64,000 bases of DNA from Candidatus Omnitrophota bacterium (GTDB lineage Bacteria; Omnitrophota; Gorgyraeia; Gygaellales; Profunditerraquicolaceae): contig JALOQK010000006.1 of assembly GCA_025453395.1 (NCBI GenBank), positions 22,539-86,538 of the forward strand, written 5' to 3'. This document shows positions 381 to 54,227 of this stretch, piece after piece. The stretch's first letter is position 1. Every line of letters starts with the position of its first letter. A program made the position numbers and the translations under genes. The notes below the pieces were generated by a model that made no database searches, was not told the origin of the DNA, and worked only from the letters and a program-made list of their open reading frames with translations.

Positions 381-674
381 TTATTTCTGCTCAGGCACAG
401 GCACCTTGGGCGCTTGCGGAACCTGCTGCTGCATAGGCGCGGGCCTTCTTTGCATTGTCTTATCCTGCTGATAAGAAGCTCGCGGCGCGAACGCCTGAAT
501 AATACTTGCCGCAAAAAGGACAACTGACATACCGATAAAAACAACAGACACAATGCCTAAAACTTTTAACCTTTTATCTTCGGTCTTGCTTAAAGCAACT
601 AACACCAGAAATAAAACAGATAAAATTATTGTTGTAGGCAGCATCAAAGACATTATTATCCCCAGTATAGCCAT
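381..674 (-). CDS. small membrane protein (2 TM helices, Q/P-rich C-terminal tail), hypothetical
   Basis: 97-aa ORF with two hydrophobic helices and a MQQQVPQAPKVPVPEQK tail. RBS AAAGGAG lies 7 nt upstream of the ATG. Its stop is 5 nt from the CheY start, so the two are probably co-transcribed. Confidence 0.4.
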   Translation of the reverse strand: MAILGIIMSLMLPTTIILSVLFLVLVALSKTEDKRLKVLGIVSVVFIGMSVVLFAASIIQAFAPRASYQQDKTMQRRPAPMQQQVPQAPKVPVPEQK

Positions 675-697
675 TTGTTTCTCCTTTCGTTCTTAGT

Positions 698-725
698 ATT
701 ATAGCAAAAAAAACGGATTCCACAA
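698..725 (-). promoter_or_regulatory. putative sigma70-type promoter for the small membrane protein/CheY pair
   Basis: Minus-strand reading: TTGTGG-16nt-TGcTATAAT (extended -10), then AAAGGAGAAACAA ATG. The -35 match is weak. Confidence 0.3.
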
Positions 726-740
726 TAATTATTGTAAAAA

Positions 741-3700
741 CTAAGATTGTTTCTTCTTCTCTCTATCCTCTATTAATTTGGCGGCGATTTCCTGCGGGGC
801 CTGCATATAACATTTAAATTCCATAGAGCTGTTGGCCCTGCCGCTTGATAAAGAACGAAAGGCTGTGGCATAACCAAACATTTCCCCTAATGGGACATCC
901 GCGGAAATCAACTTTTGTTTACCCTTGGCATCCATATTCAGGATCTTGCCTCTTCTGGAGCAGATATAGCCGATAACACTATTAGTGTACTCATCAGGAG
1001 TAGAGACTTGAAGCGACATATAAGGCTCCAATAACACCGGCTTTGAGTGCATCACCGCGTCTTTGAAAGCCATGCTGGCGGCAATCTTAAAAGCAAGCTC
1101 CGAAGAATCTACCTCATGGAAAGAACCGTCCACTAAGGTAATTTTGATATCAACAACCGGATACCCCACATAAACGCCCTTGAGCATTGCCTCTTTCACG
1201 CCCTTCTCTACCGACGGAATAAAAGATCTTGGGATCGCCCCGCCTTTTATGGCGTCCACAAATTCAAAACCTCCTGCCGGACCCAAGGGAGCTATTTCAA
1301 TAACTACATGCCCATACTGGCCGCGGCCTCCGGTTTGACGGATGTATTTGCCTTCGGCCTTAAAGGTTTCAGTAACAGTCTCCCGATAAGCAACCTTCGG
1401 CTGGCCCACAATAGCGTCCACGCCAAATTCTACTTTAAGCCGGTCCACAATAATCTCAAGGTGCAATTCCCCCATGCCGGTAAGAAGCGTCTCTTGAGTT
1501 TCTTCATCGCTGGATACGATAAAAGTTGGGTCTTCATCGGACAAACGAGCCAAAGCCCTGCCAAGCTTATCCTGGTCTGCCCGGGTTTTGGGAGAAATAC
1601 TCAAAGAAACAACTGGGATAGGAAATTGTATCGCCTCCAGAAGCACGGGATTCTTAGGGGCACAAAGAGTGTCTCCGGTTGTGGCATCTGATAAACCGAT
1701 CAAGGCCACTATCTCGCCGGCGTAGGCATAATCAATATTTTCGCGCTGATTAGCGTGCATGCGCACAATTCTTCCCACGCGCTCTTTTTTATCTTTGCGC
1801 ACGTTTAATATATAAGTGCCGGTTCGCAAGACCCCTGAATACACGCGCACATAAACTAATTTTCCCATGTGCGGATCAGACTGGATCTTAAATGCCAAGC
1901 CTGTAAACGGCTCTTCAAAATCCGGATGGCGCTCTATAAGAGTTTCCGGGTTAGAAACATCATGCGCTTTAACCGCAGGCAGATCTAAAGGGGAAGGTAA
2001 AAACATCCCCACAGAATCAAGCAGTTTCTGTATCCCCTTATTCTTAAAAGCTGCTCCGCACAAGACTGGAATTAGTTTATTGGCAATGGTGGCCTTACGA
2101 ATAACTTTGATCAGCTCGTCATTAGTAATGCTTTCTGCATTCTCCAGATATTTTTTGGTCAATTCTTCGTCACAGGTAGAAACTTTTTCCAACAAAATAT
2201 GGCGGTATTCTTTGGCCTTTTCTTTATATTCCTCGGGGATTTCTTCAATATTGAAATTCTTACCCTGCGCGTCTTGCTCTTTATAAACATAGGCCTTCAT
2301 CTCTATCAAATCAATAATGCCTTTAAAATTATCTTCCGCTCCCACAGGCAAAACAATCGCCACCGCATTTGCTTCCAAATCTTCTTCTATTGCCTTTAAC
2401 ACCGCGTAGAAATCAGCGCCTGTCCTGTCCATCTTATTTACAAAAGCTAACTTCGGAACATTATATTTATTAGACTGCCTCCAGACGGTTTCTGACTGAG
2501 GCTCTACCCCTCCTACGGCGCAGAAAACCGCAACCGCCCCGTCTAATACGCGCAGTGACCGCTCCACCTCTACTGTAAAATCCACATGGCCGGGAGTATC
2601 AATAATGTTAATCCGGTTTTTATTCCAGTAACAAGTAGTCGCCGCTGCGGTAATGGTAATGCCTCTTTCCTGCTCCTGCTTCATCCAATCCATCTGGGCC
2701 TTACCATCATGCACTTCTCCGAGCTTATGAGATCTGCCGGTATAAAAAAGAATGCGCTCCGTAAGGGTAGTCTTGCCAGCGTCAATATGCGCCATGATCC
2801 CAATATTTCTTAGATCTTCTAATTTAAAATTTGGTTCCGGAATTAAAACATCTTCTTCAGAAACAGCTTCTTGCGGCTTTACAGGGGAATCTTCTTGCGT
2901 TTCCTCTGGCCGCACAACCGGCTCTTGCGGCTTGGCAGGTTCAACATCAACTTGCCTGATATTCTCTTGGCCGGCCGGGCTTTCTTCTTTAGCTGCTTGC
3001 TCGCAAGAGATCTCTTGTTTTAGGGGCTCTTCCTGCGGCGCTTCAAACTGGGCGCGGCTATTCAATTGATTTTTAAGCGCCATTATTTCGTCAACCAGTT
3101 TCTTGATCTTTTCTTCTTTAGCATCAAGCTCTTTCTCAAGGCCGGTATATTCCTCATTAAGATTATTAAAATCCTGCTTGGGCACCCATTCGCTTAACTT
3201 TTCCCTCTCCCGAAGCTGCGAAATTAATATATCTTTTTCCTTGATCGTCTTGGCATGCCGCTCTATCTGATGTTTCATAGATTCAATCTGGTCGGATTTA
3301 TTCTTATTATCTTTAACAAGCGAGTTCATATCCAAACTCATATCATTCATCTGGCGGCTTAACTCTACATTGCGGGTAAAATTATCCTGAAGCTCTTTTT
3401 CTCTATCGGTAAACTTTTTCTTTACCGACTGATTTTCTTCCTGAAGGCGTGTTATCTCTTCCCCTTCTTTCTTGATCCACTCTTCCCTGCGTTTAATCTC
3501 TATATTCATCTGGGATTCAACCGTCTGAAGGCGATCAAGATTAGCCTGCATAGAAAGAAAATTAGTATTAGATTTATCAAGCTCTGAGCGGGTTTTATCC
3601 AATTCCTCCTGAAGGCGCAATATTTTCTGCTCTTTAGCGATAATGCCGTCTTCAACGCTTTTTTCGCGCCGCGCCTTTTTTACAGATGCTTTGCCGGCAG

Positions 3701-3767
3701 GCATCATTAACCCGTAGATTGCCAAGCCTACGCCGAAAACAAAAATTGAAATCAAGAAAATTAACAT
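741..3767 (-). CDS. elongation factor G paralog with N-terminal transmembrane helix + ~290 aa coiled-coil/acidic linker extension (1008 aa)
   Basis: Residues ~320-1008 align along their whole length with EF-G ([127 protein letters not shown]). Residues 1-22 are hydrophobic ([22 protein letters not shown]). Residues ~25-230 are K/E/Q-rich heptad-like coiled coil. Residues ~230-315 form a P/E/Q-rich acidic linker. The frame is continuous with no stop. Confidence 0.85.
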
Positions 3768-4832
3768 CTATTTAATCTCCGCTAATTCATAATCAAGGCT
3801 GCCAAGCCCGAGCTTTTGGGCATATTCCAATTGCCGCAAGGCGTCTCTCTCGGGATGGGCCTTTTTAAAAACATCTTCTCCGGATTTCTTCAAAACTGAA
3901 TCAAAACAGGCCTTATCTATTGCTACCGGATCACTTGAAGCAAATATCCCTACGTCCGGACAGATGCTGGGGTCATCCTTGGCCAGGCAATCACATTCCT
4001 TGGTGATCTTTAAAGCAAAATTAATAAAACACGCCGGTTTAGACATTCCCTTAAGCAACGCGAAGGCATATTCTACCATCTTTTCCTGGATTGTGGAACT
4101 GCCAGATTCCCATTTCACATCAATGGCTTTTTTAGGGCAAACCGCGATACAACTGGCGCAGCCAATGCAAAGCTTCTGATCTATAACAGCCGAATCTTTA
4201 TTTAAGCTTATTGCCTTGACAGGGCAGACATCTACACAATGTCCACAAACAATACAAGAATCTTTATGCACCACAGGGCACAAATCTGAATGCTGCGCTA
4301 ATTTCCCCTCTCGAGAAGCGCAGCCCATGCCGATATTTTTCAAGGCCCCGCCAAAACCAGTCATAATATGCCCCTTAAAATGCGCGATATCCACTAAGGC
4401 ATCCACATCATTAAAAAATGAGGAAATTTTTGCCTCTTTGACATATTTTTTGTTAATAACAACCTCTGTGCTTTTATCGCAGCCTATTTCAACAGGGGCA
4501 TGGATATTTTCCAGAAAGAAGCCGTGTTCTCTGGCCAGCAACAGATGCTCTTCGGATTTCACTCTTCTTCCGCAATAAAGGGTATTGGTATCAACCGCCA
4601 CCGGCAGGGCTTTCTTTTCTTTGATCATATCAGAAACCGCGCGCACATATTCCGGCTTAACAAAACCAGTATTGCCTTCTTCGCCAAAATGCAGTTTTAA
4701 CGCTACTTTCGCGCCTGAACGGATAAAATCCAAAACCGCGCTGGCTTTAAGCAAACGGTTAAATTTGGCCAGAATATCCCGCTTTTCCTGTTTATCTAAC
4801 ACTGAAACAAAATATACTTTGCTTTTTTCCAT
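3768..4832 (-). CDS. DUF362-family iron-sulfur protein with two 4Fe-4S ferredoxin motifs
   Basis: CIVCGHCVDVCPVKAI and CIGCASCIAVCPKKAI are CxxCxxCxxxCP motifs. The N-terminal region resembles DUF362. Its start abuts the EF-G fusion stop (0-bp gap). Confidence 0.65.
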   Translation of the reverse strand: MEKSKVYFVSVLDKQEKRDILAKFNRLLKASAVLDFIRSGAKVALKLHFGEEGNTGFVKPEYVRAVSDMIKEKKALPVAVDTNTLYCGRRVKSEEHLLLAREHGFFLENIHAPVEIGCDKSTEVVINKKYVKEAKISSFFNDVDALVDIAHFKGHIMTGFGGALKNIGMGCASREGKLAQHSDLCPVVHKDSCIVCGHCVDVCPVKAISLNKDSAVIDQKLCIGCASCIAVCPKKAIDVKWESGSSTIQEKMVEYAFALLKGMSKPACFINFALKITKECDCLAKDDPSICPDVGIFASSDPVAIDKACFDSVLKKSGEDVFKKAHPERDALRQLEYAQKLGLGSLDYELAEIK

Positions 4833-4835
4833 GGG

Positions 4836-7337
4836 CTACTGGGATTTAAAGAATATGTCCGTAAAACTTTTAATTATTGATCCGACTGCCGGCTTAAACT
4901 TATATTTTGGCTCTTTGAGCGTTCCGCCTATAGTAATCAAGCCAAAACGCGTAGCCTGCCCTAATATCGCGGTAGTAATATCGCGTATGCCGCCGGTTAA
5001 GGGGGCATCGGGAGAAATCTCCACATTTAAAGAAGCATCCAGGGAGGAATCAAAGCCAATCAGGGCATTTCCTTTAATTGTAGCCAAATTACTGATAAGG
5101 ATCAAATTATCCGTTGATATCTTTTGTTTACCCACGATAAAATCACATCCGCCTTGGGTAAAAACTACGTTCGTAAAATCAGTGGTAAATAAAAGCTTGC
5201 CTATGCCCTTAAGCAAATTTAGATTCCAAAGTTTACCGTTATAGACTAAAACCCTTCCCGCGCCTTCTATATTTTGCAGATCATTGCCTTTTCCGGCCAA
5301 TTCAAACTGAGCGGATAAAAGCCCGGACAGGTCAGAATCCTTGGCTTGGGTGTCCATCTTTAAACGCTCAAGCTTTACATTATCAATAACTGCGCGCAAA
5401 GAAAACGGCATGGATGCCTCACGCAAATCTACTGTTGCCGTGCCAGTTATTTTACCTTCGTATAGAAAAGCTACGAGGTCAGAAAACTTTCCCATACCGG
5501 AATTTTGAGCATAAACTGCCTGCAGGCCATCTAATTTTATTCCATAAAGAGAAACTGGAGAAGTTTTTATATCCATTTTAAGGGAAGCTTTGGGCAGGGC
5601 ATTTAAATAGCCGTTTAACTCAAACAATACCTCTGCCTTGCCATTTAAAGAGGCTTTTTCAAGCTGCGGCTTTAATGCAAGCGGAACAACATTAATTATA
5701 TCTTTTAAATCTACCGAAGCTGTTGCTCTTACTCCGGCAAGGGCAACCGCCTGAGAAAGATCAAATGAGCCAGAAGCTGATACCTCAGAATTAGAATACC
5801 GGGCTTTGAATTTTGACAAAACCAAAACCTTGCCGCTGGAAGCAAATTCTGCGACTGCCGACAGATCCGCAGATGATATTGATATAATTCCCGACGGGCT
5901 TGACAGGCTTAAGATTGAACCCGAAGACTGACAGGCCTTATTCATATAGCCGAATCTTAAATTATCCCATTGCAGGCTATCCCGCGTAAAATTTATCCTG
6001 CCATTTACTTTTTCAATAGCAGCTGGCAGCTTTTCTTGCTTGATGTTCACATCCTTTAAATCTAAAGCGCCGGTTACTTTAAGCCTGTCTAAAGAAAGCG
6101 GCAGCACAGATGACACTTGACAGGCCAATACCGCATCGCCATCCATTTTATAAATAGCGGTAATCTTAAATTTATTGTTTAAAGCGTCCTGCAATAGCGC
6201 CATGCCAAAAGAAGAATTAAGCTTTAAATCAAAAGCTGGCGCCTGAAGGCTATTATCCAGTTTTAACTCTGCCTGAAAAGGAACACCCGAAACAGAAGCA
6301 TTAATGCCTTTTAATACCGCCTGCTTATCATCAAATTGGGCGTTACAAGAAAAGTTATCCAAACGGCCTATATGGTCTATACCGGTAATACTGGCATCCT
6401 GGATGCGCGCCTTACCGGCATAGCTTAATTGTTTATCTGCAAGGCCGTATTTAATGCTGGTATCCCCGGAAAAAGACGCGTCAAAACCCAGTTTATCTTT
6501 AATAAAATTAAACTTAGCCGCAGAGAAATTTAAATTGGCGCTTAAAATCCCTTCTTTAAACTGCAGGTCTGCCTTTGAGCTTAAGATGCCGTTTTTAAGC
6601 TTGATACCCAAGGCATCCATGTAAACAGCAAATTGCGCAAGGTCAAAATTATCTAAATCAACATGCGCGGATAGATCTTTCTGCGGGATGCGGTATTGCC
6701 CGGAAAAGGAGACCAAAGATGAAATTACCGCCTGCCCGCGAAATTTAACGCTTGCCGGAAGGGACAGGTAAACGGTTAAATCTAAATCTTCGATTTGCTT
6801 ATTGAACACGGGCTGAAACATATTGTCTTTAAAATCAACCCGCGCTTTAGAAATAACCATTTTCCGCACTACAAAATTAAGCGCGCTCGAAGAAAATTTA
6901 TTTGCTGAAGCATTTGTGAATAAAGATAAAATATCGATGCCGCCGAACTTATCGCGAGAAACCCATATTTGCGGATTAAGAAGATGCACCGAAGAAATAA
7001 CGATTCTCTTTTGGATAGGAAAGATAAAAAAGCTTATATAGGTTTTGGGAAGATATATATAGGTGCGGCTGTCATCAAATATCTTAAAATCCGTTAAAAC
7101 TATCCCTCTAAAAATATTAAGCTTTAACGAACTTAAGCTTACTTTTTTCCCGGTTACGTTTTGGCTGGCTTCAATAATGGCGGATTTTATTTTGGTAGGC
7201 AGGTACACCCTATCCAGGTAAAAAAAACAAAAAGTTAAGGCAAGAATAACGGCCAGTAAAAAAATAAGCGCCAGTTTGATCTTTTTGAACATAAATTTTT
7301 TTGGAAAACTAAAGAATGAATTCCGGCTTCTTGACAA
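4836..7337 (-). CDS. AsmA-family outer-membrane biogenesis protein
   Basis: 833 aa with an N-terminal TM anchor (IKLALIFLLAVILALTFCFFYL) and a long beta-rich periplasmic region with repeated DLK/DF motifs, the typical AsmA/TamB-like architecture. Confidence 0.55.
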   Translation of the reverse strand: MSRSRNSFFSFPKKFMFKKIKLALIFLLAVILALTFCFFYLDRVYLPTKIKSAIIEASQNVTGKKVSLSSLKLNIFRGIVLTDFKIFDDSRTYIYLPKTYISFFIFPIQKRIVISSVHLLNPQIWVSRDKFGGIDILSLFTNASANKFSSSALNFVVRKMVISKARVDFKDNMFQPVFNKQIEDLDLTVYLSLPASVKFRGQAVISSLVSFSGQYRIPQKDLSAHVDLDNFDLAQFAVYMDALGIKLKNGILSSKADLQFKEGILSANLNFSAAKFNFIKDKLGFDASFSGDTSIKYGLADKQLSYAGKARIQDASITGIDHIGRLDNFSCNAQFDDKQAVLKGINASVSGVPFQAELKLDNSLQAPAFDLKLNSSFGMALLQDALNNKFKITAIYKMDGDAVLACQVSSVLPLSLDRLKVTGALDLKDVNIKQEKLPAAIEKVNGRINFTRDSLQWDNLRFGYMNKACQSSGSILSLSSPSGIISISSADLSAVAEFASSGKVLVLSKFKARYSNSEVSASGSFDLSQAVALAGVRATASVDLKDIINVVPLALKPQLEKASLNGKAEVLFELNGYLNALPKASLKMDIKTSPVSLYGIKLDGLQAVYAQNSGMGKFSDLVAFLYEGKITGTATVDLREASMPFSLRAVIDNVKLERLKMDTQAKDSDLSGLLSAQFELAGKGNDLQNIEGAGRVLVYNGKLWNLNLLKGIGKLLFTTDFTNVVFTQGGCDFIVGKQKISTDNLILISNLATIKGNALIGFDSSLDASLNVEISPDAPLTGGIRDITTAILGQATRFGLITIGGTLKEPKYKFKPAVGSIIKSFTDIFFKSQ

Positions 7338-15914: not shown

Positions 15915-17645
15915 TTACTTGTGTTTTTTCTTTTTATAAATATGCTGCTGGGCAAAAAGTTCCTGAAGCGCCTGCCAAATTTCATGCTGGCTATCGGCAG
16001 CCAAGAATTTCTTGCGGTTATTCTGATCGGACATAACACGCGCGATAATGCCTAATATCTGGACCTGCGCTTCGTCATCCTGCTTTGGAGTCAGGATAAG
16101 AAAAATAAACTTTGCAGGATTACCGTCTGGAGAATTCCATTCAATCCCGGATTTTGCCCGGCCGAGGATGACTCTTGAGTGCATCAAAAAATTAATCCGC
16201 GCGTGCGGAAGAGCGATGCCCTCTTCTATTGCGGTGCCCATCATGTTTTCTCTTGCTAAAACAGGCGCATATATCCTTTCAGCATCAGGCATGTTGCCCT
16301 GCTCTGATGCAAGAGAACATAATTCGTATATGGCGCTGTCCCGGTCTTTGGCTTTCATATCAAGGATAATTTCTTTATGGGAAAAACACTCCATCACGCT
16401 TATTTTCTTTCTTAACATAAGCGAATACTTTAAGAGCGGGCCCAATAAAGTTGCTGAAGTCACCCCGCTTGCCACAATTGCCACAAACATCTGCTCAGTA
16501 ATAAGATTATACTGCAAGGCTAAAATGCCAATAACAATCTCCATGGAGCCTCCGGGAGTATGCGCTACCGCCACAGAAAGCCGATTAGCCCGGGAAAGCT
16601 TGGTAAAAATAACCCCGATCCATGCCCCGATAAATTTGCCGAAGAAACTTACAAAGGTGATAAAAATAATTAACTTAAGATTAAAGTTATGCAAGAAATC
16701 AATATTCAGACCAATGCTGGCAAAGAAAAGCGGGACAAAAATAGCATAGACCATCTGGGAGATCACCTGACGGGTGCGCTCAGGAAGCGCCTTTGCTTCT
16801 CCCGCCATTACCCCGGCGGCAAAAAATCCCAGCATCGCGCTTATGCCTATTCTCTGAAACAGCGCCCCGCAGAAAAAACCGGCCAAACAAAGAAAAGTAA
16901 GCGAACTTGCCGGTTCGGGCATTTCAGACTTCTTGATAAAATTAATCACCTTCTCAGATAAGCGCCTGCCGTAACTTAAACAAAAAACCACCAGGATTAT
17001 AGCCGACGCCAAAACCATAACAAGCTTAATAAGATGCACATTGGTGTTAGTAAAGACAGCTAACACCAGCGTAAAAATAACCCAACCGATTATTTCATTG
17101 ACCGATAAGGCCGACATAATCAAATATCCCAAATCAGTCTTAGAGATATTTAAATCATTTAGAGCCCTGATTGTCACAGGCATGGCGCTTATGGTCATAA
17201 CTGTAGCCATAAAAAGGGCAAATATTATTCTTTGGGACGGATCAACCAGGAAGCTATCAGGTATAAAAAGGCTTAAAACAAAACCCATGAACATCGGGAA
17301 AATAATATCGCTTGAGGCTATTTTTAAGGCATTGCCGCGATGGCGCCAGGCAGCGGAAAAATCCATGCCTAATCCGGTCTCAAGAAGAAAAAACAAAAGG
17401 CCCATCAAAGCGACAGTCTCAAGCATATAAAGCTGCGCCGGATCCTGCGGAAAAACAAAATTATATGCCTTAGGAAAAAACCTTCCGAAAACTGTCGGCC
17501 CGAATAAAATCCCCACGAGTATCTCTGCAGTTAAAGTTGGCTGCTTAAACCTGCGGAAAATCTCGCCTAATAGCCTGGCAAAACCTAAAAGCAAGAAAAC
17601 CTGCAGCAAAAAGATAAAAATATTGTCCTGAGCGAACATGATCAT
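15915..17645 (-). CDS. cation:proton antiporter (CPA2/Kef-type) fused to C-terminal PTS EIIA(Fru/Ntr)-type regulatory domain
   Basis: The N-terminal ~400 aa form a polytopic Na+/H+-exchanger-like membrane domain. The C-terminal ~150 aa carry the PTS_EIIA_2 signature, including GIALPHARIN with the phosphorylatable His. Confidence 0.75.
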   Translation of the reverse strand: MIMFAQDNIFIFLLQVFLLLGFARLLGEIFRRFKQPTLTAEILVGILFGPTVFGRFFPKAYNFVFPQDPAQLYMLETVALMGLLFFLLETGLGMDFSAAWRHRGNALKIASSDIIFPMFMGFVLSLFIPDSFLVDPSQRIIFALFMATVMTISAMPVTIRALNDLNISKTDLGYLIMSALSVNEIIGWVIFTLVLAVFTNTNVHLIKLVMVLASAIILVVFCLSYGRRLSEKVINFIKKSEMPEPASSLTFLCLAGFFCGALFQRIGISAMLGFFAAGVMAGEAKALPERTRQVISQMVYAIFVPLFFASIGLNIDFLHNFNLKLIIFITFVSFFGKFIGAWIGVIFTKLSRANRLSVAVAHTPGGSMEIVIGILALQYNLITEQMFVAIVASGVTSATLLGPLLKYSLMLRKKISVMECFSHKEIILDMKAKDRDSAIYELCSLASEQGNMPDAERIYAPVLARENMMGTAIEEGIALPHARINFLMHSRVILGRAKSGIEWNSPDGNPAKFIFLILTPKQDDEAQVQILGIIARVMSDQNNRKKFLAADSQHEIWQALQELFAQQHIYKKKKHK

Positions 17646-17668: not shown

Positions 17669-19135
17669 TTAACGCGGAACAAGCCTCATCAATTCTTCTT
17701 TTAAAAGATGTTTCCTGATCGCGCAATCCTGATGCCAATTCTCATTCAAAAGCACAAACTGCCTTTGCAGAAAGAAATTATTCTGTATAAAGTTAAATAA
17801 AACGCGGCAGGGATCATAAGAAAGCCCGGATGAGACAAGATACAGGGGCCTGCCGCTTTGATAATGTTTACGAAGCTGCGATAAAAAATCTGTCCACTTA
17901 TTTACGTCACAATCAGAAGGAGGCACCAGTGCTTCTCTTTTAGTGTAATACTTCAGGAATATCCATTCATCCTGGGTAATAATCAAGCTGTTGGGCTGGG
18001 TAAAAGCTTCAATATTCTTGGCAAAATCCACCTGATAGGCATGCAGGTGCCTTTGCCACAAAAGAGGATATATGTATAAAAACATGGGGATAATAAATAA
18101 AAATGTTAGCGCCCCTGAAAGAAAAAGCCTCTCCCGAGATAAATAAGCGATCCCCCGCGCGGCGTAATAAAAAAGAAAAAACACAGGCACAATAAGGTAA
18201 CGCGGGGTGTCCGCTTCACGGTTAACCACATAGACAAAAGGCACTAAAAACGCTATAAAGAAAAACAGATTTAATTTAAGATTTTCTTTTTTCATCCACA
18301 AATAAAGCCCTACCAGGCAGGCTAATATGCTAACACGCAAAGTCTGGCCCAACATCACAAACCCTTGGGCAATGTGCGCGAAGGTAAATTCCCAGACGAT
18401 TAAAAATTGATCCGGTTTCTTAATAAAAAAACGCTGGACTATTTCCGGCATAATAAAATTATCTACCCACCCCTTCCTTGCAGCTAAAAGGCTTATAAGC
18501 GCCCACAGCCCTAAGGAAAACAATGAAAATAAAAACACGCAGCGCAAGGCATAAAGGATATTCTCCCGTTTCTGAATAATAAGCCAAAAAAGCATAGCCG
18601 GAATAACAAGGGCGCATTCGCCCCGGGAAGCAATGGCTAAACCAGCGAAAATAGAAGATTTTATCCATGACAACTCAAATAAATAAAACAGGCAGATTGG
18701 CAGCAGCAACGAAGCCAAAGCATGATCGATCCTGCCAAATGTAGTTACGGAAAGAAAAGCGGGATAAAAAGAAAACAAAAGAAAAAGGGCAAAACTGGAA
18801 GCATCCCCTATTCTCTTCCTAAATAATAAATAGCCTAACATCTGGCCCAATGACGAAAATAAAACCGTAACGAACATCAATAGATTCAGGTCATCAAGGT
18901 TTTTCAAAAAAAGGGATTTAATCCAGGAAAGAAATATCACAAAAACAGAGGCCAACGGCATATAAATACCATGCTCGCTGATAGAATGTTCCCGCATTTG
19001 GATCAAAAAATCCACGGTATCGTAATGGAACGGCCCCTTGCTTAAAAGAAGCCATCTTACCCAAAAAGACACAGCAAAAATAAAAAGCCCATAATAAATA
19101 ACCCTGCTTGAGGAAGCTTTGTCGCGGTTTTGCAT
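17669..19135 (-). CDS. polytopic membrane protein with C-terminal soluble domain, putative GT-C-type glycosyltransferase
   Basis: About 12 TM helices and a ~120-aa hydrophilic C-terminus. No diagnostic motif found, so the call rests on architecture only. Confidence 0.3.
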   Translation of the reverse strand: MQNRDKASSSRVIYYGLFIFAVSFWVRWLLLSKGPFHYDTVDFLIQMREHSISEHGIYMPLASVFVIFLSWIKSLFLKNLDDLNLLMFVTVLFSSLGQMLGYLLFRKRIGDASSFALFLLFSFYPAFLSVTTFGRIDHALASLLLPICLFYLFELSWIKSSIFAGLAIASRGECALVIPAMLFWLIIQKRENILYALRCVFLFSLFSLGLWALISLLAARKGWVDNFIMPEIVQRFFIKKPDQFLIVWEFTFAHIAQGFVMLGQTLRVSILACLVGLYLWMKKENLKLNLFFFIAFLVPFVYVVNREADTPRYLIVPVFFLFYYAARGIAYLSRERLFLSGALTFLFIIPMFLYIYPLLWQRHLHAYQVDFAKNIEAFTQPNSLIITQDEWIFLKYYTKREALVPPSDCDVNKWTDFLSQLRKHYQSGRPLYLVSSGLSYDPCRVLFNFIQNNFFLQRQFVLLNENWHQDCAIRKHLLKEELMRLVPR

Positions 19136-24787: not shown

Positions 24788-25627
24788 TTATTCCTTAAGA
24801 TACTCATGCGCCATGTAGGAACTGCGCGTGTAGGGTGAGCTTTGAACATGCAAAAAACCTAACTTCATGCCTTTTTCTTTATAAAAGGCAAATTTCTCGG
24901 GAGTAACATATTCCTTCACCGGATAGTGTTTAATGCTTGGGGCAAGATACTGGCCAATGCTTAAAAAATCACAGGATGCATGACGCAAATCTGACATAGC
25001 GCAGGCGACTTCTTCTTCTTTCTCGCCCATACCCAGCATAATCCCGGATTTGGTTTTAATCTCTGGCGCAATTTTCTTAATAAATCTTAAAACATCAAGC
25101 GACCTCTGGTAACTTGCGCCTTGACGCACCAAACTGTAAAGCGAAGGCACAGTCTCAATATTATGCGCGATAATATCAGGATAAGAATCTGCGACTGTAG
25201 CTAACGCTTCATCTGAAAGTTTAAAATCCGGAATTAAAATCTCAATTTTTGCTCCTGGCGATAATTTTCGTATGGATAAAACAGTACCCGCAAAAATCTT
25301 TGCTCCTCCATCAGGCAAATCATCCCGGGTTACACTTGTAATTACTACATGAGACAAATTTAATTTCTTTACTGCCTCTGCCACACGCATCGGCTCTTCC
25401 TGATCAACCGCCTCTGGAGTATTGTTCTGAACATTACAGAATTTACAGCCCCTTGTGCAATATTTACCTAAAATCAAAAATGTCGCCTGGTTATGGCTAA
25501 AACACTCTGCAATATTAGGGCAAGAGGCTTGTTCGCAAACCGTATTTAGCTTACTTTCCCGCAGCAATCTCTTCATGTCGGAACAAGCATTAAGATTTAT
25601 TTTCTTATTTAACCAAACTGGTTTCAT
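24788..25627 (-). CDS. lipA: lipoyl synthase
   Basis: CEQASCPNIAEC (auxiliary cluster) and CTRGCKFCNV (radical-SAM CxxxCxxC) over 279 aa. Confidence 0.9.
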   Translation of the reverse strand: MKPVWLNKKINLNACSDMKRLLRESKLNTVCEQASCPNIAECFSHNQATFLILGKYCTRGCKFCNVQNNTPEAVDQEEPMRVAEAVKKLNLSHVVITSVTRDDLPDGGAKIFAGTVLSIRKLSPGAKIEILIPDFKLSDEALATVADSYPDIIAHNIETVPSLYSLVRQGASYQRSLDVLRFIKKIAPEIKTKSGIMLGMGEKEEEVACAMSDLRHASCDFLSIGQYLAPSIKHYPVKEYVTPEKFAFYKEKGMKLGFLHVQSSPYTRSSYMAHEYLKE

Positions 25628-26330
25628 AAAATTCTACTCCAAAATTATCGGAAAAAGAATCAATAAGCTTATCCTCTAAAATATTCCTCTCTGGCAAACT
25701 TGAAAACTGTTCGGATAGACTAGTTACATTTTCTTTTATGCCAAGCGGCATTTTCTTTAAATAACTCTCTAAAAGCTTCCAATCAATACTAAAAGGAATG
25801 CTTCCATGTTGAAAGATGCAATCCCTTTTTCTTTTTTGGGCATTGCCGCCAATCTTCTTCCCGGAAATAGTAACATCATATTTCTCATGGGATGCGCAAC
25901 ACAATTCATGGGGAAAATTTTTATTAAGGAAGCTATCAAGCTCTACAGAAAATTTTGCCTCTAGATTAAGTTTTTTATAAAAATCTAAAAGAAATCGGCA
26001 AATACTGCGATACCCCACAAGCAGGCCCTCTGGCTCATTGATATCCTCTTTAGAACAAGCAAAGCTATAGGTAATCTCATGCCAATGAAAAAGTATCCCG
26101 CCGCCAGTAATTCTTTTTACCACCTCTACATTACAAGCTATGCACCTATCAAGATTAATTTCATCATCGGGAGTTTGAGAGAATCCATAAGTAAAAGAAG
26201 GATTCTTCCATCCATATACACGGAATACTGGGATACGATCTTCTAGATATTGATTAAAGATCTTTTCATCAAGCGCCATATTAAAACTGGCACTTTGTAA
26301 ACCCGACCTTATTAATTTAAATTTTTTCAT
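25605..26330 (-). CDS. lipoate-protein ligase / octanoyltransferase family protein (BPL_LplA_LipB domain)
   Basis: The N-terminal region carries the LplA/LipB catalytic fold signatures (MALDE, RVYGW, GGGILFH, HGS). Its position between gcvP and lipA fits a lipoylation role. Confidence 0.65.
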   Translation of the reverse strand: MKKFKLIRSGLQSASFNMALDEKIFNQYLEDRIPVFRVYGWKNPSFTYGFSQTPDDEINLDRCIACNVEVVKRITGGGILFHWHEITYSFACSKEDINEPEGLLVGYRSICRFLLDFYKKLNLEAKFSVELDSFLNKNFPHELCCASHEKYDVTISGKKIGGNAQKRKRDCIFQHGSIPFSIDWKLLESYLKKMPLGIKENVTSLSEQFSSLPERNILEDKLIDSFSDNFGVEFYETSLVK

Positions 26331-27784
26331 ACAAAACGCAGATTTGGTTCGCGCGCGGCTTTTGTTTCATCAAGGCGCCTAACAGGGGTATTAACTGGAG
26401 CTTGTGTAATAGCAGTTGGATTATCTTGGGCAAGTTTCGCGATTTCAATCATTACATCTATAAACTCATCCAAGGTTTCTTTGGATTCGGTTTCTGTAGG
26501 CTCAATCATTAAGGATTCTTTGACAATTAACGGGAAATAAATCGTGGGAGGATGATAACCTTTATCAATTAAGTACTTGGCAATATCCAAGGCATGCACC
26601 CCAGTTTGCGCCTGGCGCGAGGCTGAAAAAACACACTCATGCATACAGGGTTTATCAAAAGCTGACTGGTAATAATCTTTAAGCTTCACCCGGCAATAGT
26701 TAGCATTTAAAACTGCCATTTCCGAAGCCCTGATCAAACCCTCTTTACCTAAACGTAACATATAAGCGTAAGCCTTTAAGATAACCCCAAAATTTCCGTA
26801 AAAAGGCGCGATATAACCAATAGATTTATGGCGGTGATAATCCAAGGCATAGGTGGCATCACTTCTTTTAATCACTCTTGGGTTGGGCAGGAATTCAACT
26901 AACTTCTCCCCTACGCCTACTGGCCCTGCTCCCGGACCTCCTCCTCCATGAGGAGTGCCAAAGGTTTTATGCAAATTTATATGCACTACATCAAAGCCCA
27001 AATCTCCGGGACGGGCCTTGCCTAAAACTGCGTTTAGATTAGCTCCGTCATAATACATCAATGCCCCTGCCTCATGCGCCATATCAGAGATTTCTTTAAT
27101 GCGCGGATTAAAAATCCCTAAGGTATCCGGACAAGTAAGCATTACCGCGGCAACTTCTTTATTTAATTGCTTTTTATACTCCGCTAAATCCATATAACCG
27201 TCGGGACCAGTGGGAATAACAATAACTTTGTATCCGGCAATAGCCGCGCTTGCGGGATTAGTGCCATGCGAAGAATCCGGCACGATTATATACTTACGCC
27301 TGTCGCCTTTATCCTTGTGATACGCGGCAATCAGCATTACTCCGGTTAACTCACCATGCGCTCCGGCTAAAGGCTGTAAGGTAAAGCCATGCATCCCGGT
27401 AATTTCGCAAAGAAGTTTTTTTGTCTCAAACAAAACTTCTAAAGACCCTTGAGTCAACATCCCGCCTCCGGCAAGTTGCGGCAATAATGGATGCACATGG
27501 GTAAAGCCTTCAAGAGAAGCCACCCGCTCGGTAAACTTAGGATTATATTTCATGGTGCAGGAGCCCAAAGGATAAAAATTACCATCCACAGAAAAATTCA
27601 TCTGTGACAAGTTTGTATAGTGGCGCACTACGTCCAGCTCGCTTAAAGACGGCAATTTTGCTTCTTGCTTGCGGCAATATTTATCTGGCAAGCTCTTAGC
27701 TTCCGGCACATCAGAAGAAGCGTAAGAAAATCCGCGCCTTGCGCTTTTATGCTTTTCAAAAATAAGTTTCATGGGAAATCTCAT
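26327..27784 (-). CDS. gcvPB: glycine dehydrogenase (aminomethyl-transferring) subunit 2
   Basis: PLP-dependent P-protein C-terminal half, with HINLHKTFGTPHGGGGPGAGPVGV containing the PLP-binding Lys region. Confidence 0.9.
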   Translation of the reverse strand: MRFPMKLIFEKHKSARRGFSYASSDVPEAKSLPDKYCRKQEAKLPSLSELDVVRHYTNLSQMNFSVDGNFYPLGSCTMKYNPKFTERVASLEGFTHVHPLLPQLAGGGMLTQGSLEVLFETKKLLCEITGMHGFTLQPLAGAHGELTGVMLIAAYHKDKGDRRKYIIVPDSSHGTNPASAAIAGYKVIVIPTGPDGYMDLAEYKKQLNKEVAAVMLTCPDTLGIFNPRIKEISDMAHEAGALMYYDGANLNAVLGKARPGDLGFDVVHINLHKTFGTPHGGGGPGAGPVGVGEKLVEFLPNPRVIKRSDATYALDYHRHKSIGYIAPFYGNFGVILKAYAYMLRLGKEGLIRASEMAVLNANYCRVKLKDYYQSAFDKPCMHECVFSASRQAQTGVHALDIAKYLIDKGYHPPTIYFPLIVKESLMIEPTETESKETLDEFIDVMIEIAKLAQDNPTAITQAPVNTPVRRLDETKAAREPNLRFV

Positions 27785-29112
27785 AATACAGCCTCCAGAG
27801 CATCCACAAAGGAATTTATCTGCTCTTTGGTTCTTTTTTCAGTTACCGCTACCAGCAAATAATTATCCATACCCTTATAAAACCTGCCCAAAGGAAAACC
27901 ACAGGCAAATCCTTTTTCTATCATCCGGTGCACCACATCATCCGCGTCACGCGGCAACAAAACTGTAAACTCATTAAAAGTAGATGAACTTTTCTTTACC
28001 TGAACCGAAGAAACTCTGGATAAAACATTTTTAGCGTATTCAGATTTCTGATAATTAAGCTGGGCTAATTCTTTTAGGCCATCTCTACCCAAAAGCGCAG
28101 CAAATACCACCGCGCGCAAAGCGCATAAGGCCTCGTTAGAGCAGATATTGGAAGTAGCTTTTTCCCGACGGATATGCTGTTCGCGGGTCTGAAGGGTCAA
28201 AACAAAAGCGCGTTTACCTTGGCTATCAACAGTTTGCCCCACAATTCTTCCGGGCATCTGGCGCACAAGCCCTTTTTTTGCTGACATAAATCCTAAATAA
28301 GGGCCCCCAAAAGATAAGGGAATCCCTAAACTCTGGCCTTCGCCGGTTGCAATATCAAATCCCATCTCACCGGGAGATTTCAGCATCCCTAAAGATACCG
28401 GATATACCGAGGCAATTGCCAAAGCGCCAAACTTATGCACCTGTTCTACTACATCGCTGTAATCATCCACTACCCCAAAGAAATTTGGATTTTGTATAAT
28501 TACCGCCGCAGTTTTGTCATCCAGGTGCTTTGAAAAATCTGACCGCGAGCTTTTTCCATGCTCAATGGGGATCTCTACAAATTCAATAGAAAGATTAGAA
28601 GTATAGGTATAAAGCATGGTGCGGTAAATTAAATTAACCCCGCTATCCATAATAATTTTATTGCGCCCGGTCAGGCGAATCGCCATCATCAAGGCTTCAT
28701 AAAGCGCGGTTCCTCCGTCGTATAAAGAAGCATTGGAAACATCAAGCCCTGTTAATTCGCAGATAATCGTCTGATATTCGTATATTGCCTGCAGCCACCC
28801 TTGTGAACACTCTGGTTGATAAGGAGTGTAAGCCGTATAAAATTCCGGGCGGTTAACAATGGCATCAACTGCCGCTGGGATAAAATGATCATAGAATCCA
28901 GCACCCACAAAATTAATTAAATTGGTCGCGTTTTTAGTAGCAAGCCTGTGCAGGTGTTTGGTTACTTCAAACTCTGATTTACCTGGCGGGATATTAAAAG
29001 ATTTGGGCCTTAAGGCAGGCGGAATATCACCAAAAAGCTCATCAATGCTTGAAACTCCAATAACCTTAAGCATTTCCTGAATATCTTCTTTGGTGTGTGG
29101 CACATAACTCAT
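27781..29112 (-). CDS. gcvPA: glycine dehydrogenase (aminomethyl-transferring) subunit 1
   Basis: P-protein N-terminal half (FIGAGFYDHFIPAAVD, YTPYQPECSQG), translationally coupled to gcvPB by a 4-nt overlap. Confidence 0.9.
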   Translation of the reverse strand: MSYVPHTKEDIQEMLKVIGVSSIDELFGDIPPALRPKSFNIPPGKSEFEVTKHLHRLATKNATNLINFVGAGFYDHFIPAAVDAIVNRPEFYTAYTPYQPECSQGWLQAIYEYQTIICELTGLDVSNASLYDGGTALYEALMMAIRLTGRNKIIMDSGVNLIYRTMLYTYTSNLSIEFVEIPIEHGKSSRSDFSKHLDDKTAAVIIQNPNFFGVVDDYSDVVEQVHKFGALAIASVYPVSLGMLKSPGEMGFDIATGEGQSLGIPLSFGGPYLGFMSAKKGLVRQMPGRIVGQTVDSQGKRAFVLTLQTREQHIRREKATSNICSNEALCALRAVVFAALLGRDGLKELAQLNYQKSEYAKNVLSRVSSVQVKKSSSTFNEFTVLLPRDADDVVHRMIEKGFACGFPLGRFYKGMDNYLLVAVTEKRTKEQINSFVDALEAVL

Positions 29113-29498
29113 TTTGAAAGACCCTCTAGATAAACTTGATAAGCGTTATTATCCATAAGCTTGGCTTTTTCTTGCTCATTATCAAGCTGGATCACAAAGA
29201 AAAAACCTTTTTCATAGCAAGACTTGTTAACTAATTCAGGATGGCTGGCCAATTCTGGATTAACAGATAAAACTGTGCCGGAAAATGGGCTATAAACGTC
29301 CGATGCCGCCTTAACCGACTCTACAACCGCCGCCGGATCAGCTTGTTTTAATGCTTTCCCGACTTTTGGTAAATCTACAAATGTAATATCTCCCAATGAA
29401 CCCTGGGCATAATCAGTAATACCGACATAAGCGGTTTTACCTTCTACGCGCGCCCATTCATGATCTTTGGTATAAAGAAGATTTTCTGGAATATTCAT
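29109..29498 (-). CDS. gcvH: glycine cleavage system H protein
   Basis: MNIPENLLYTKDHEW...VESVKAASDVYSPFSG contains the lipoyl-lysine motif. I prefer the start at M16 (29498), which has AGGAGG 7 nt upstream, over the upstream ATG at 29543. Confidence 0.9.
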   Translation of the reverse strand: MNIPENLLYTKDHEWARVEGKTAYVGITDYAQGSLGDITFVDLPKVGKALKQADPAAVVESVKAASDVYSPFSGTVLSVNPELASHPELVNKSCYEKGFFFVIQLDNEQEKAKLMDNNAYQVYLEGLSK

Positions 29499-29543
29499 CA
29501 AACTTGATCCTCCTGTTATAGCATTATTTTGTCGCCCCACCAT

Positions 29544-49102: not shown

Positions 49103-49630
49103 TTAAGATTTTTGCTTTAAGAATGAAATAAGATTGTGCAGGATAATAATAGGCTCTGGAGGGCAACCGGGAATATGAAGAACTACCGATCCCGTGATAG
49201 ATTGGATATCGCCTATGGCGTAATAGGAATCGCGGAAGATCCCTCCTTTTAACGCGCAATCTCCGACAGTTATGACAAATTTTGGCTCAGGCATGGAATT
49301 AAATGTTTTCTTAAGCGCAAGCGCCATATTTCTGGATACAGGCCCAGTTACTACAAGCGCATCCGCGTGACGGGGAGAAGCCACAAAATCTACGCCAAAA
49401 CGCTGAATATCATATATAGGATTGCTCAAGGCAATAAGCTCTGATTCACACGCCCCGCAGGAACCGGTATCCACTTCTCTTAAATGCAAAGACCTGCCAT
49501 AAAGTTTATGGATAATCTTCTTCAGCTGTTCCCCTGCAGAATCAATCTGGCGGCTTGATTCATCCTGCGGAAGGATAAACTTCTCTGTAAGCAGCCCCTT
49601 TTTAAAACTATTATTAATAATGTCAAACAT
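49103..49630 (-). CDS. NuoB / group-4 hydrogenase small-subunit-like Fe-S protein
   Basis: GSCGACESE, VGDCALKGG and IPGCPPEP provide the four Cys for a proximal-type [4Fe-4S] cluster. 175 aa. Confidence 0.8.
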   Translation of the reverse strand: MFDIINNSFKKGLLTEKFILPQDESSRQIDSAGEQLKKIIHKLYGRSLHLREVDTGSCGACESELIALSNPIYDIQRFGVDFVASPRHADALVVTGPVSRNMALALKKTFNSMPEPKFVITVGDCALKGGIFRDSYYAIGDIQSITGSVVLHIPGCPPEPIIILHNLISFLKQKS

Positions 49631-49635
49631 AGGAT

Positions 49636-51201: not shown

Positions 51202-51202
51202 A

Positions 51203-52660: not shown

Positions 52661-52665
52661 CTTAC

Positions 52666-53301: not shown

Positions 53302-53303
53302 CT

Positions 53304-54224: not shown

Positions 54225-54227
54225 ATT

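Follow-up and report, generated by a model that had tools for sequence, protein, structure and literature searches.

The gene at positions 741 to 3767 of the window (minus strand; the window is the whole 64,000-nucleotide stretch of Omnitrophota DNA analysed here) encodes a complete, canonical EF-G that is fused at its N-terminus to a predicted membrane anchor, a long coiled coil and an acidic linker. We consider it reasonably likely that this EF-G is held at the cytoplasmic membrane, probably as a dimer, and acts there as a tethered translocase. Its architecture, conservation, origin and taxonomic range are treated here as established. EF-G is among the most conserved and best-studied proteins and is invariably regarded as a soluble factor that diffuses through the cytosol; in this phylum as a whole, a fully canonical EF-G would be covalently attached to the membrane through a stalk that resembles a ruler. 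A reading of this stretch from the sequence alone (the sequence-only reading) had proposed a membrane-tethered translational GTPase of an undescribed kind, and the predicted features fit such a tether, while no membrane-anchored coiled-coil EF-G is described in the searchable literature.

Reading frame and annotation

The gene is a single open reading frame of 1008 codons on the minus strand, as are all features described below, running from an ATG at 3767-3765 to a TAG at 743-741. The frame had been described as uninterrupted, and it contains neither a stop nor a frameshift in any of three independent assemblies, which agree letter for letter (the NCBI MAG, JGI contig Ga0392394_0000096 and Logan SRR12684589). 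JGI calls the gene at 1008 aa, while NCBI (MCU0666678.1) gives 684 aa by starting at codon M325 (2793..2795), which lies within a 14-residue stretch of the protein. The corresponding NCBI-type record (P0001, 684 aa) aligns to 68% of the ORF at 100% identity. A second lineage (L109) has an NCBI record of 697 aa, and such calls come to 684 or 697 aa as compared with 1008 or 1036 aa. In this way the extension is systematically trimmed by NCBI-style annotation, leaving the architecture invisible in public protein records and marker-gene sets.

These short records are what speaks for an artefact, in which the true product would be an ordinary soluble EF-G of about 684-697 aa and the 312 codons upstream either would not be translated or would belong to another gene fused to it by mistake. 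We give this explanation next to no probability and regard it as already effectively refuted. The same unbroken frame is found in the three assemblies and in more than 100 orthologues at 50-66% identity, and the extension is conserved as protein, with a coiled coil that is free of indels and shows the heptad repeat, and with a TM helix that follows the positive-inside rule. A start at M325 would, moreover, remove strand beta-1 of the G domain, and the position at which short forms of EF-G begin has no start codon: close to where the EF-G body begins, M325 is the only in-frame ATG, GTG or TTG, and where short forms have MAR, long forms have P.P. An internal start giving a soluble form was rejected on the same two grounds. 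A Shine-Dalgarno-like GGAG of putative function (3777..3780) falls within the last part of the upstream gene, 9 nt before the ATG, and scans for promoters and terminators gave nothing above shuffled expectation.

Genomic context

The upstream neighbour (3768..4832) encodes a DUF362 protein with two [4Fe-4S] clusters by Pfam, and its stop codon TAG (3770-3768) abuts the EF-G ATG with a 0-bp gap, as first reported. This neighbour lies outside the conserved feature, since DUF362 adjoins the long EF-G in just 3 of 80 relatives' loci. The pgi-asmA-DUF362-EF-G operon that had been proposed thus does not hold up as a unit, and DUF362, AsmA and PGI were rejected as functional partners because their adjacency is not conserved. 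The commonest neighbours of the long EF-G are MgsA, a PPIase and UvrD, and across the 80 loci no partner is conserved that would suggest a link to the machinery of secretion or insertion.

The gene does not occupy the str-operon position between rpsG and tuf; the 64-kb window has no gene for S12, S7, EF-Tu or S10, and none lies within 10 kb of any of the 81 loci with a long form. The sequence-only reading had set its location against the str operon of canonical fusA, yet location outside the str operon fails as a marker, because the canonical short EF-G of the phylum is likewise free-standing in all of the approximately 20 populations examined. In L097 and L103 the short EF-G lies upstream of gcvT of the glycine-cleavage cluster, while the window has unrelated genes there. 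A metagenome scan also gave genuine str-operon EF-Gs at about 60% identity; the flanks of their contigs had no informative genes in common with 2.8 Mb of Omnitrophota DNA, and a search of viral contigs for an Omnitrophota str operon gave no matches. According to a preprint, several complete chromosomes of Omnitrophota contain S12-S7-EF-G-EF-Tu operons (bioRxiv 10.64898/2026.06.07.730766).

Conservation and taxonomic range

Whether relatives carry the same fusion, a question raised at the outset, is answered by the more than 100 orthologues: at least 119 other protein clusters at 90% identity carry an extension of 281-369 aa, and the long form is present in 80 of the 80 best GTDB-genome loci. 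All named loci belong to the Omnitrophota, falling in Velamenicoccia and Gorgyraia (GTDB c__Koll11). When the N-terminal module was searched alone against 1.84 billion (1.84e9) representative proteins, 100 matches were returned, every one a fragment or full copy of the long EF-G family, and the module has no relative in Pfam or the PDB. A module standing alone or fused to other domains was rejected on this basis, and across these searches the long EF-G family is specific to the phylum. Four apparently short matches in the genome scan were rejected, having proved to be long forms or truncations at contig ends, as were L124, L138 and L160 in the metagenome scan, which are truncated long forms.

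The EF-G body

The EF-G body occupies aa 313-1008 (744..2831) and is complete by Pfam, TIGR00484, PDB matches and motifs, in keeping with the five-domain EF-G with intact GTPase motifs that had been described. Pfam models follow in order at aa 318-996 (GTP_EFTU, EF-G_D2/GTP_EFTU_D2, EFG_III, EFG_IV and EFG_C), which places the G domain with G′ at 1995-2816, domain II at 1659-1910, domain III at 1404-1625, domain IV at 1044-1400 and domain V at 780-1037. The TIGR00484 equivalog scores 1053.3 bits against a cutoff of 659.4, with aa 314-1003 covering model positions 5-690 of 691, and the best PDB matches are EF-G from T. thermophilus (872 bits) and E. coli (840 bits). The GTPase motifs are intact (P-loop AHIDAGKT, switch II DTPGH with its catalytic His, and NKMD), as is the His at the tip of domain IV. 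Across 101 relatives, no variation occurs in a 17-residue P-loop segment or in the domain-IV loop GGRGQYGH, and A326-T334, D390-H394, N444/K445/D447 and G813-H820 are likewise invariant among 101 family members. None of the curated cutoffs for EF-G2 or EF-G-like proteins is reached (NF009377, 513.7 vs 890; NF058620, 469.5 vs 1000; NF009892, 186.7 vs 640), nor is that for tetracycline ribosomal protection (NF012153, 389.9 vs 775), where the subfamily scores are also far below their cutoffs. On TIGR00484, long forms score 1053-1077 bits and short forms 1067-1095, with both under every EF-G2 and Tet cutoff. By these profile scores the body is a canonical EF-G, and not EF-G2 or Tet. Where it departs from the typical soluble shape of about 700 aa starting just before RNIGI is in the 312 extra N-terminal residues with their predicted TM helix.

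Anchor, stalk and linker

The anchor is a single TM helix at aa 2-22 (21 residues; 3702..3764), for which hydropathy, AF2 and the charge pattern predict an N-out/C-in orientation. Its Kyte-Doolittle 19-residue mean is 2.45-2.55, and an N-terminus of TM grade (KD(19) >=1.6) is found in 108 of 120 relatives, with a median of 2.32. Across 108 relatives there is a median of 2 residues ahead of the helix, with K+R of 0.11 before it and 3.56 in the 15 aa after it, which is the pattern predicted for an N-out/C-in anchor of about 19-21 hydrophobic residues with positive charges on the cytoplasmic side. By this helix the long EF-G would insert into the membrane. It is followed by a basic, disordered juxtamembrane segment of low conservation (aa 23-42, 3642..3701; AF2 pLDDT <50 for aa 22-42).

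An AF2 run with a 101-sequence alignment, a check that had been suggested, agrees with the layout of helix, disorder and EF-G: helix at 2-20, disorder at 22-42, helix at 43-191, a break at 192-196, helix at 197-237, disorder at 238-315 and then the EF-G fold, mostly at pLDDT >85. Segment 1 of the coiled coil (aa 43-191, 3195..3641; 149 residues, ~22 nm) is a single AF2 helix with the conserved motifs RREEW (93-97), KEKELQ..F..NV (122-134) and QIE..KHQIE (160-169). In the family-averaged hydrophobic profile, one heptad register runs through 21 heptads (aa 43-190). A helix break with register shift, SEWVP (aa 192-196, 3180..3194), marked by a block of ~70% identity, separates it from segment 2 (aa 197-237, 3057..3179; 41 residues, ~6 nm), which carries the motif K.-FN.LNEEY..LEKEL and in which L203 is invariant. 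Power at period 3.5 exceeds that of shuffles at z=21.9 for aa 43-191 and z=8.0 for aa 197-237, and core-hydrophobic residues fill 61% of a/d positions in segment 1 and 88% in segment 2, as compared with 6-10% elsewhere (10% in segment 1). Sustained 3.5 periodicity within a continuous predicted helix identifies a left-handed heptad coiled coil. The block has zero gaps across 119 relatives, such that its length is fixed. The anchor, long coiled coil and acidic linker of the sequence-only reading are therefore recovered as a coiled coil of ~195 aa and a linker of ~75 aa, and its ~30-nm stalk as one of ~22 + 6 nm (~28 nm). From its coiled coil, the long EF-G is most likely a parallel dimer; the parallel arrangement is proposed because both anchors must share one membrane.

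Many of the residues conserved in the stalk fall outside the heptad core (invariant W97 at g, F130 at e, K107 at c and H166 at f), on a conserved surface that also takes in K122-E125 and S192-K197, and because of this the stalk probably binds a partner, in which case the real function may differ from that of a tethered translocase. The stalk plus leash is also longer than reaching a translocon-bound ribosome requires. One such function would be that of a scaffold, where the EF-G head is a ribosome-binding handle that docks idle, hibernating or special-pool ribosomes to a membrane structure bound by the coiled-coil surface, with GTP turnover regulating attachment. The partner implied by the non-core residues is consistent with this, as is the fixed stalk length, which suggests a spacer or ruler, and eukaryotic eEF2 is reported to be able to act as a hibernation factor (PMC13541302). 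Nonetheless, the family shows no variation in any of its catalytic motifs or in the tip of domain IV on which translocation depends, and the body is constrained as tightly as the canonical copy, with only 15 fixed differences, none in the G motifs, a constraint beyond what docking alone would call for. We hold this alternative to be highly improbable.

The acidic linker (aa 238-312, 2832..3056) is rich in Pro, Glu and Gln (23% E, 15% P, 12% Q) and disordered (AF2 pLDDT 25-36), with a net charge of -13 and a family median charge of -10. It is variable, spanning 44-110 aa across the family with 19% identity and 36% gaps, while prolines P310 and P312, just ahead of the EF-G body, are conserved. 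The position of an intact EF-G immediately after a long disordered linker that proteases could reach, together with these two prolines, could also be read as the mark of a pro-form. Here, EF-G would be stored inactive or unavailable at the membrane of predatory or parasitic cells until, on a signal such as host contact, a protease cut in the linker or near the conserved P.P.F.LEK junction and released soluble EF-G. The ribosome content of V. archaeovorus rises when it is attached to prey (PMC10066038), which would suit such a switch. Yet the variability of the linker leaves no conserved sequence for specific cleavage, a storage anchor would not need a fixed 195-residue stalk with conserved surface residues, and no protease gene occurs among the conserved neighbours, making storage and release improbable.

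Origin and the question of a second EF-G

In a tree rooted on str-operon EF-Gs, the long forms group as sister to the phylum's free-standing EF-G family of ~698 aa, and the split between long and short has 100/100 bootstrap. The bodies of the two are 63-73% identical, without family-specific indels and with equal conservation within each family, and most of their 15 fixed differences are located in domains II, IV and V. In five deep lineages, one of them represented by a closed chromosome, a short and a long copy are no more than 10 kb apart. On this phylogeny the long form is a paralog by origin. The description of the gene as a paralog thus stands at the family level, but in the window's own clade (a large Koll11 group including Gygaellales and some Gorgyraia) the searches turned up no second EF-G, and all five lineages with both copies are deep branches outside it.

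This leaves room for a reading in which the short copy was lost in the window's clade and the anchored form is the sole housekeeping EF-G, carrying out all translocation and recycling from an essential, general gene. No second EF-G is found within 10 kb beyond the window edge, and in a metagenome scan with a short-form query, six large contigs of the clade (1,873,723, which is JGI contig Ga0209340_1000001; 646,801; 357,304; 295,182; 285,210 and 233,399 bp) gave, among the matches listed, the long form only. Any short-family gene would have outranked the long form, and a scan pattern is present in 86% of known short forms; were a short copy present in every genome, such a result would have a rough probability of P~0.07. 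In two lists of the best 120 matches, long forms of the window's clade sit on contigs of up to 1.19 Mb, 714 kb and 647 kb, and none of the clade's contigs also carries a short form. Conservation of the long body to the level of the short family and the lack of an internal start codon are in line with a sole EF-G, as is arithmetic on the reach of the tether, which covers 66-97% of the cytoplasm in cells of 0.2-0.3 µm. Against it, the scan rests on the 600 matches listed and on exact 8-residue patterns, and a divergent copy such as the str-operon EF-Gs reported by preprint from several chromosomes would escape the searches used. Parsimony also argues for retention, given an ancestor with both copies, and Susulua, of the same class (Velamenicoccia), retains both. 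We therefore regard a sole EF-G as possible, though unlikely. What "specialised" means for the long form changes with the presence of a soluble EF-G in the window's clade.

Were the short copy lost, the only EF-G of the clade would be anchored, unable to diffuse freely and probably dimeric, with translation organised as a membrane-proximal shell, a picture we put forward tentatively and hold as doubtful. Every elongation and recycling event in cells of ~0.2 µm would then be driven by a factor tethered to the inner membrane. We know of no precedent for a cell without freely diffusing EF-G.

Proposed function

Returning to the tethered translocase that we favour, what we infer is membrane insertion, dimerisation, translocase activity and purpose. 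The family arose by duplication of the phylum's free-standing canonical EF-G, one of the two copies gaining an orphan anchor and stalk module by fusion. In the proposed scheme, the N-terminal helix would insert N-out/C-in, followed by the fixed coiled coil of 149 + 41 residues, a leash of 44-110 aa and the cytoplasmic EF-G. Ordinary EF-G chemistry is most likely, because every GTPase and ribosome-contact motif is kept and the body evolves as slowly as the canonical copy; the long EF-G would carry out GTP-driven translocation of tRNA and mRNA and, with RRF, subunit splitting. Its action would be limited to ribosomes no farther than about 30-55 nm from the membrane, where it may make EF-G locally more concentrated for polysomes bound there, such as those that synthesise the very long membrane proteins typical of the phylum. 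Cells of the uncultured Omnitrophota are 0.2-0.3 µm across and have giant, mostly membrane-anchored proteins (PMC10066038; bioRxiv 10.64898/2026.06.07.730766), and the tie between tether and giant proteins is a correlation at the level of the phylum only. The long EF-G would offer a natural tethered factor for studying how translation is limited by the local concentration of a factor, how membrane proteins of 10,000-150,000 aa are made and what is different in ultra-small cells, and it makes testable an old question, namely whether bacteria spatially organise elongation beyond targeting and insertion.

Comparison with known systems

The long EF-G shares its five domains, G motifs and GGRGQYGH with canonical FusA (TIGR00484; Thermus thermophilus 1DAR/4V5F, E. 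coli 4V7D), and presumably its chemistry. It differs in a 312-aa module of TM helix, coiled coil and acidic linker that is found in none of the described EF-Gs, in having no Met at the canonical start, and in being predicted to be membrane-bound and probably dimeric. The short EF-Gs of Omnitrophota and Aureabacteria (P0121; P0213, Ca. Susulua stagnicola; P0355, Ca. Kappaea frigidicola) form the sister clade and are also encoded outside the str operon; they start MAR..LEK.RNIGI, without the extension, and are set apart by the 15 fixed differences.

Paralogous EF-Gs provide a precedent for dividing the labour of translocation and recycling. EF-G2 of Thermus and Mycobacterium, EF-G1/EF-G2 of spirochaetes and mitochondria, and Tet(M)/Tet(O) resemble the present case in being a second EF-G-type gene per genome. 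The window protein fails the curated cutoffs of these paralogs (EF-G2, 514 vs 890; Bacteroidota EF-G2, 470 vs 1000; Tet, 390 vs 775), and at 493 bits against mitochondrial EF-G2 and 384 bits against Thermus EF-G-2 it is far closer to canonical EF-G. While those paralogs diverge in the body, the window protein diverges by its added N-terminal module.

In overall design, the nearest bacterial parallels are RNase Y, with an N-terminal TM helix and coiled coil, and FtsY, with an acidic A domain and a membrane-binding helix before its GTPase. Both share the order of anchor, coiled-coil or acidic region and cytoplasmic catalytic domain acting on ribosome or mRNA substrates, but their catalytic domains are different ones and their anchor regions are not homologous, with no match to Pfam RNase_Y_N or SRP54_N. 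Kinectin and p180/RRBP1 of the eukaryotic ER likewise have an N-terminal anchor and a long coiled coil, with kinectin binding EF-1delta and p180 binding ribosomes and polysomes. By analogy, the window protein would join them in using a membrane anchor and a very long coiled coil to hold translation machinery. There is no sequence relation between them, and whereas kinectin and p180 recruit their factors non-covalently, the EF-G of the window is itself fused to the stalk.

Open reading frame and annotation

The long EF-G gene occupies the minus strand of the window from an ATG at 3767 to a TAG at 741-743, bearing out the unbroken 1008-codon frame described in the sequence-only reading. The 1008-aa protein is identical in the NCBI MAG, in JGI contig Ga0392394_0000096 (metagenome 3300037461) and in the Logan assembly of SRR12684589, and is called at full length by JGI. 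The NCBI record (MCU0666678.1) holds 684 aa, its start being placed at M325 (2793-2795, minus strand), inside a 14-residue motif; in MAG JAQVMQ01 (L109, 5032-7125), NCBI annotates 697 aa against an open frame of 1046 codons. NCBI annotation systematically cuts long EF-Gs to such canonical-looking lengths by picking an internal Met, and public protein records thus hide the N-terminal module (aa 1-312). No in-frame ATG, GTG or TTG was found around the beginning of the EF-G body (aa 313-1008) in the window ORF, and where the short EF-Gs begin MAR..LEK.RNIGI, the long forms read P.P..LEK.RNIGI, both of which make it unlikely that a soluble form is translated from an internal start.

N-terminal module

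The proposed sequence of hydrophobic helix, coiled coil and acidic linker is recovered by prediction. A TM-grade segment spans aa 2-22 (Kyte-Doolittle 19-mer mean 2.45-2.55), and AlphaFold2, given a 101-sequence alignment, places helices at 2-20, 43-191 (one continuous) and 197-237, with a break at 192-196, disorder at 22-42 and 238-315, and a confidently modelled EF-G fold thereafter. A single heptad register holds in the family-averaged hydrophobic profile between aa 43 and ~190 (z = 21.9 versus shuffles); the conserved SEWVP is the site of a register shift, with six further heptads beyond. These coiled-coil segments would span ~22 nm and ~6 nm, in keeping with the stalk of ~30 nm that had been estimated. 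Glu makes up 23% of the disordered linker, Pro 15% and Gln 12%, and the linker's net charge is -13. Among the 108 relatives whose TM helix could be recognised, the median number of residues ahead of it is 2, and mean K+R is 0.11 before the helix versus 3.56 in the following 15 residues, a bias that predicts an N-out/C-in topology with EF-G in the cytoplasm. No Pfam domain was found in aa 1-313, and the module has no significant PDB match. Searched alone, as had been suggested, aa 1-312 returned only 100 matches by phmmer against 1.84 billion representatives, all those inspected being fragments or full copies of the long-EF-G family.

Relatives do share the fusion. Among 5.8 billion clusters searched, at least 119 others (969-1059 aa) are 58-66% identical over ~100% of the query, and all 119 listed carry an N-terminal extension of 281-369 aa. 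Across these relatives, the coiled-coil block (aa 46-240) is gap-free; the linker shows 19% identity, 36% gaps and lengths of 44-110 aa. Conservation in the stalk peaks at RREEW, KEKELQ..F..NV, QIE..KHQIE and SEWVPK.-FN.LNEEY..LEKEL, with W97 and L203 invariant. Many conserved residues lie off the heptad core (W97 at g, F130 at e, K107 at c, H166 at f), which suggests that the stalk bears a binding surface. The best 80 GTDB loci (one genome per species) are all long forms or their contig-end truncations, and all seven named loci belong to GTDB c__Koll11, six to Velamenicoccia/Gygaellales and one to Gorgyraia (Seymour et al. table; PMC10066038). Records labelled Planctomycetales, such as SBBM01, are mislabelled Omnitrophota.

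EF-G body and origin of the long form

The body is a complete five-domain EF-G, as first read: Pfam places the five domains at aa 318-996, and TIGR00484, the NCBIfam canonical EF-G equivalog, scores 1053 bits over aa 314-1003 against a cutoff of 659, while the protein falls under every cutoff of the EF-G2, Tet and EF-2 models. Long forms score 1053-1077 bits with TIGR00484 and short forms 1067-1095. No indels distinguish the two bodies, which have only 15 fixed differences, none in the G motifs, and within-family conservation is equal.

The short family (~698 aa), found with a short copy as query, has members 75-94% identical to each other, many named Omnitrophica/Omnitrophota, plus Aureabacteria. 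NJ trees split long from short with 100/100 bootstrap, and the two are sister clades when rooted on genuine str-operon EF-Gs. Both forms share a contig or replicon in five lineages. On the closed chromosome CP070797.1 (L071) and on contig L076, a canonical EF-G of 697-698 aa lies directly upstream of a long form of 1051-1080 aa that groups within the long clade; in Ca. Susulua stagnicola (Velamenicoccia), the long form lies 9 kb downstream of the short P0213/P0214; and L110 and L114 hold further same-contig pairs. The long forms of all five cases are deep branches, 48-52% identical to the window protein. Trees and pairs together argue that the long form is a paralog by origin, through duplication and fusion before the lineages holding both copies diverged, so the paralogy first proposed stands at family level.

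Seven metagenome loci (L182, L184, L185, L187, L188, L189, L191; GC 36-38%) contain S12-S7-EF-G-EF-Tu(-S10) operons, their EF-Gs being ~60% identical to the Omnitrophota families. At L123 and L186, free-standing short-type EF-Gs diverge close to the base of the group formed by long and short forms.

Whether the window's own clade retains a second EF-G bears on the role of the anchored copy. Among the matches listed, none came to light on window-clade contigs, JGI metagenome contigs included. In two best-120 lists, with contigs up to 1.19 Mb, no short form sits on the same contig as a long form of the window's clade, and the six large window-clade contigs of the JGI scan (the largest, 1,873,723 bp, approximating a whole genome) gave the long form only among the matches listed. 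The query there was a short form, so any short-family gene would outrank the long form, and the scan pattern is present in 86% of known short forms; were a short copy in every genome, a long-form-only outcome would, by a rough estimate, be improbable. Several complete Omnitrophota chromosomes are reported to have S12-S7-EF-G-EF-Tu operons (2026 preprint, bioRxiv 10.64898/2026.06.07.730766), so some genomes may hold three EF-G genes. The window genome probably encodes a further EF-G of one type or another; it is rather unlikely that the anchored form stands alone there.

Gene neighbourhood

The upstream DUF362/ferredoxin gene ends in a stop codon that directly abuts the long EF-G ATG, confirming the 0-bp gap, and GGAG lies 9 nt upstream of that ATG. 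A conserved pgi-asmA-DUF362-EF-G operon is not upheld: only 3 of the best 80 GTDB loci have DUF362 next to the EF-G, and a few others have an AsmA-like gene upstream. The genes most often found beside it there are MgsA/RarA upstream (23 loci) and PPIase (10) and UvrD (11) downstream, a pattern that, judged by gene order, is family-level synteny and no functional operon.

The order MgsA/RarA, long EF-G, PPIase, UvrD is conserved in Gygaellales-type relatives, at L001 and 22 other long-form loci (e.g. L004, L006, L011-L014, L016-L019, L022, L023). Immediately before the short EF-G of L086, L097 and L103 sits a PPIase that is 65-72% identical; the shared PPIase may be a remnant of an ancestral EF-G locus. 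The AsmA/DUF748-like gene has its predicted start at TTG 7337, a 29-nt overlap with the PGI end (7309-7337), and its true start is uncertain because the JGI call is 15 codons shorter (818 aa).

No S12, S7, EF-Tu or S10 gene was found within 10 kb of any long-form locus, and absence from the str operon had been taken as the mark of a non-canonical copy. That argument fails: the canonical short EF-G is also free-standing in all ~20 populations examined, never adjoining S7 or EF-Tu (L071, L076, L082-L085, L086-L105, L109-L121 and L190, in Omnitrophota and Aureabacteria, none between rpsG and tuf), so this absence is uninformative in the phylum.

Directly past the EF-G stop lie a 66-nt AT-rich spacer and a gene for a two-TM, 97-aa protein with a weak UPF0114 match (381-740, minus strand). 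The spacer holds a promoter-like TTGTGG-17-TATAAT and a strong AAAGGAG RBS that would drive expression of this gene, and EF-G would thus end its transcription unit.

Other genes of the window

Co-orientation is extreme and uninterrupted through all 64 kb (1-64000): of 52 ORFs of at least 150 aa, 50 are encoded by the minus strand, and both plus-strand ORFs overlap minus-strand genes. All genes that follow are on the minus strand. An OEP/TolC-like outer-membrane efflux protein (41833-43335) has an apparent N-terminal Cro/C1-type HTH (aa 6-61), either an unusual fusion or the result of a wrongly joined start. A Na+/H+ exchanger bears a C-terminal PTS EIIA-2 fusion (15915-17645). NuoB-like, fused NuoC/D-like and NuoH-like genes with two Mrp/antiporter-like subunits (49103-56090) look more like a group-4 membrane-bound hydrogenase or Mrp-type complex than a full complex I. 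A glycine-cleavage cluster (24788-30626) comprises GcvT, a small ORF gap for GcvH, GcvP1 and GcvP2, then LplA and a LipA-like radical-SAM gene; in L097 and L103 this cluster comes directly after the short EF-G, but in the window a cobalt ECF transporter and porin precede it. For three ORFs of 488, 211 and 189 aa (17669-19135, 52666-53301, 57711-58280), Pfam gives no hit at E<=1e-5.

Proposed role and comparison with known EF-Gs

Beyond the architecture, conservation, origin and phyletic range established here, the long form would insert in the membrane with EF-G on the cytoplasmic side, dimerise through a parallel coiled coil and carry out normal EF-G chemistry on ribosomes in reach. That reach would typically be ~35 nm (22 + 6 nm of stalk and 5-9 nm rms of linker), with a maximum of ~55 nm; for cytoplasm radii of 80-150 nm, the computed shell in reach is 49-97% of the volume. 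Cells measure 0.2-0.3 um (PMC10066038), and 94% of the phylum's very long proteins have TM helices or signal peptides (PMC10066038; bioRxiv 10.64898/2026.06.07.730766). Very long membrane or exported proteins would hold ribosomes at the membrane for long times, and a tethered EF-G pool is plausible as an adaptation to them, on what is a correlation only.

In the full-text literature searched, no bacterial EF-G is described as membrane-anchored or as extended at its N terminus, agreeing with the novelty first claimed, and the Omnitrophota genome papers (PMC10066038; bioRxiv 10.64898/2026.06.07.730766) leave an anchored EF-G unmentioned. The protein fits best among the canonical EF-Gs, to which it adds a new anchoring module specific to the phylum.
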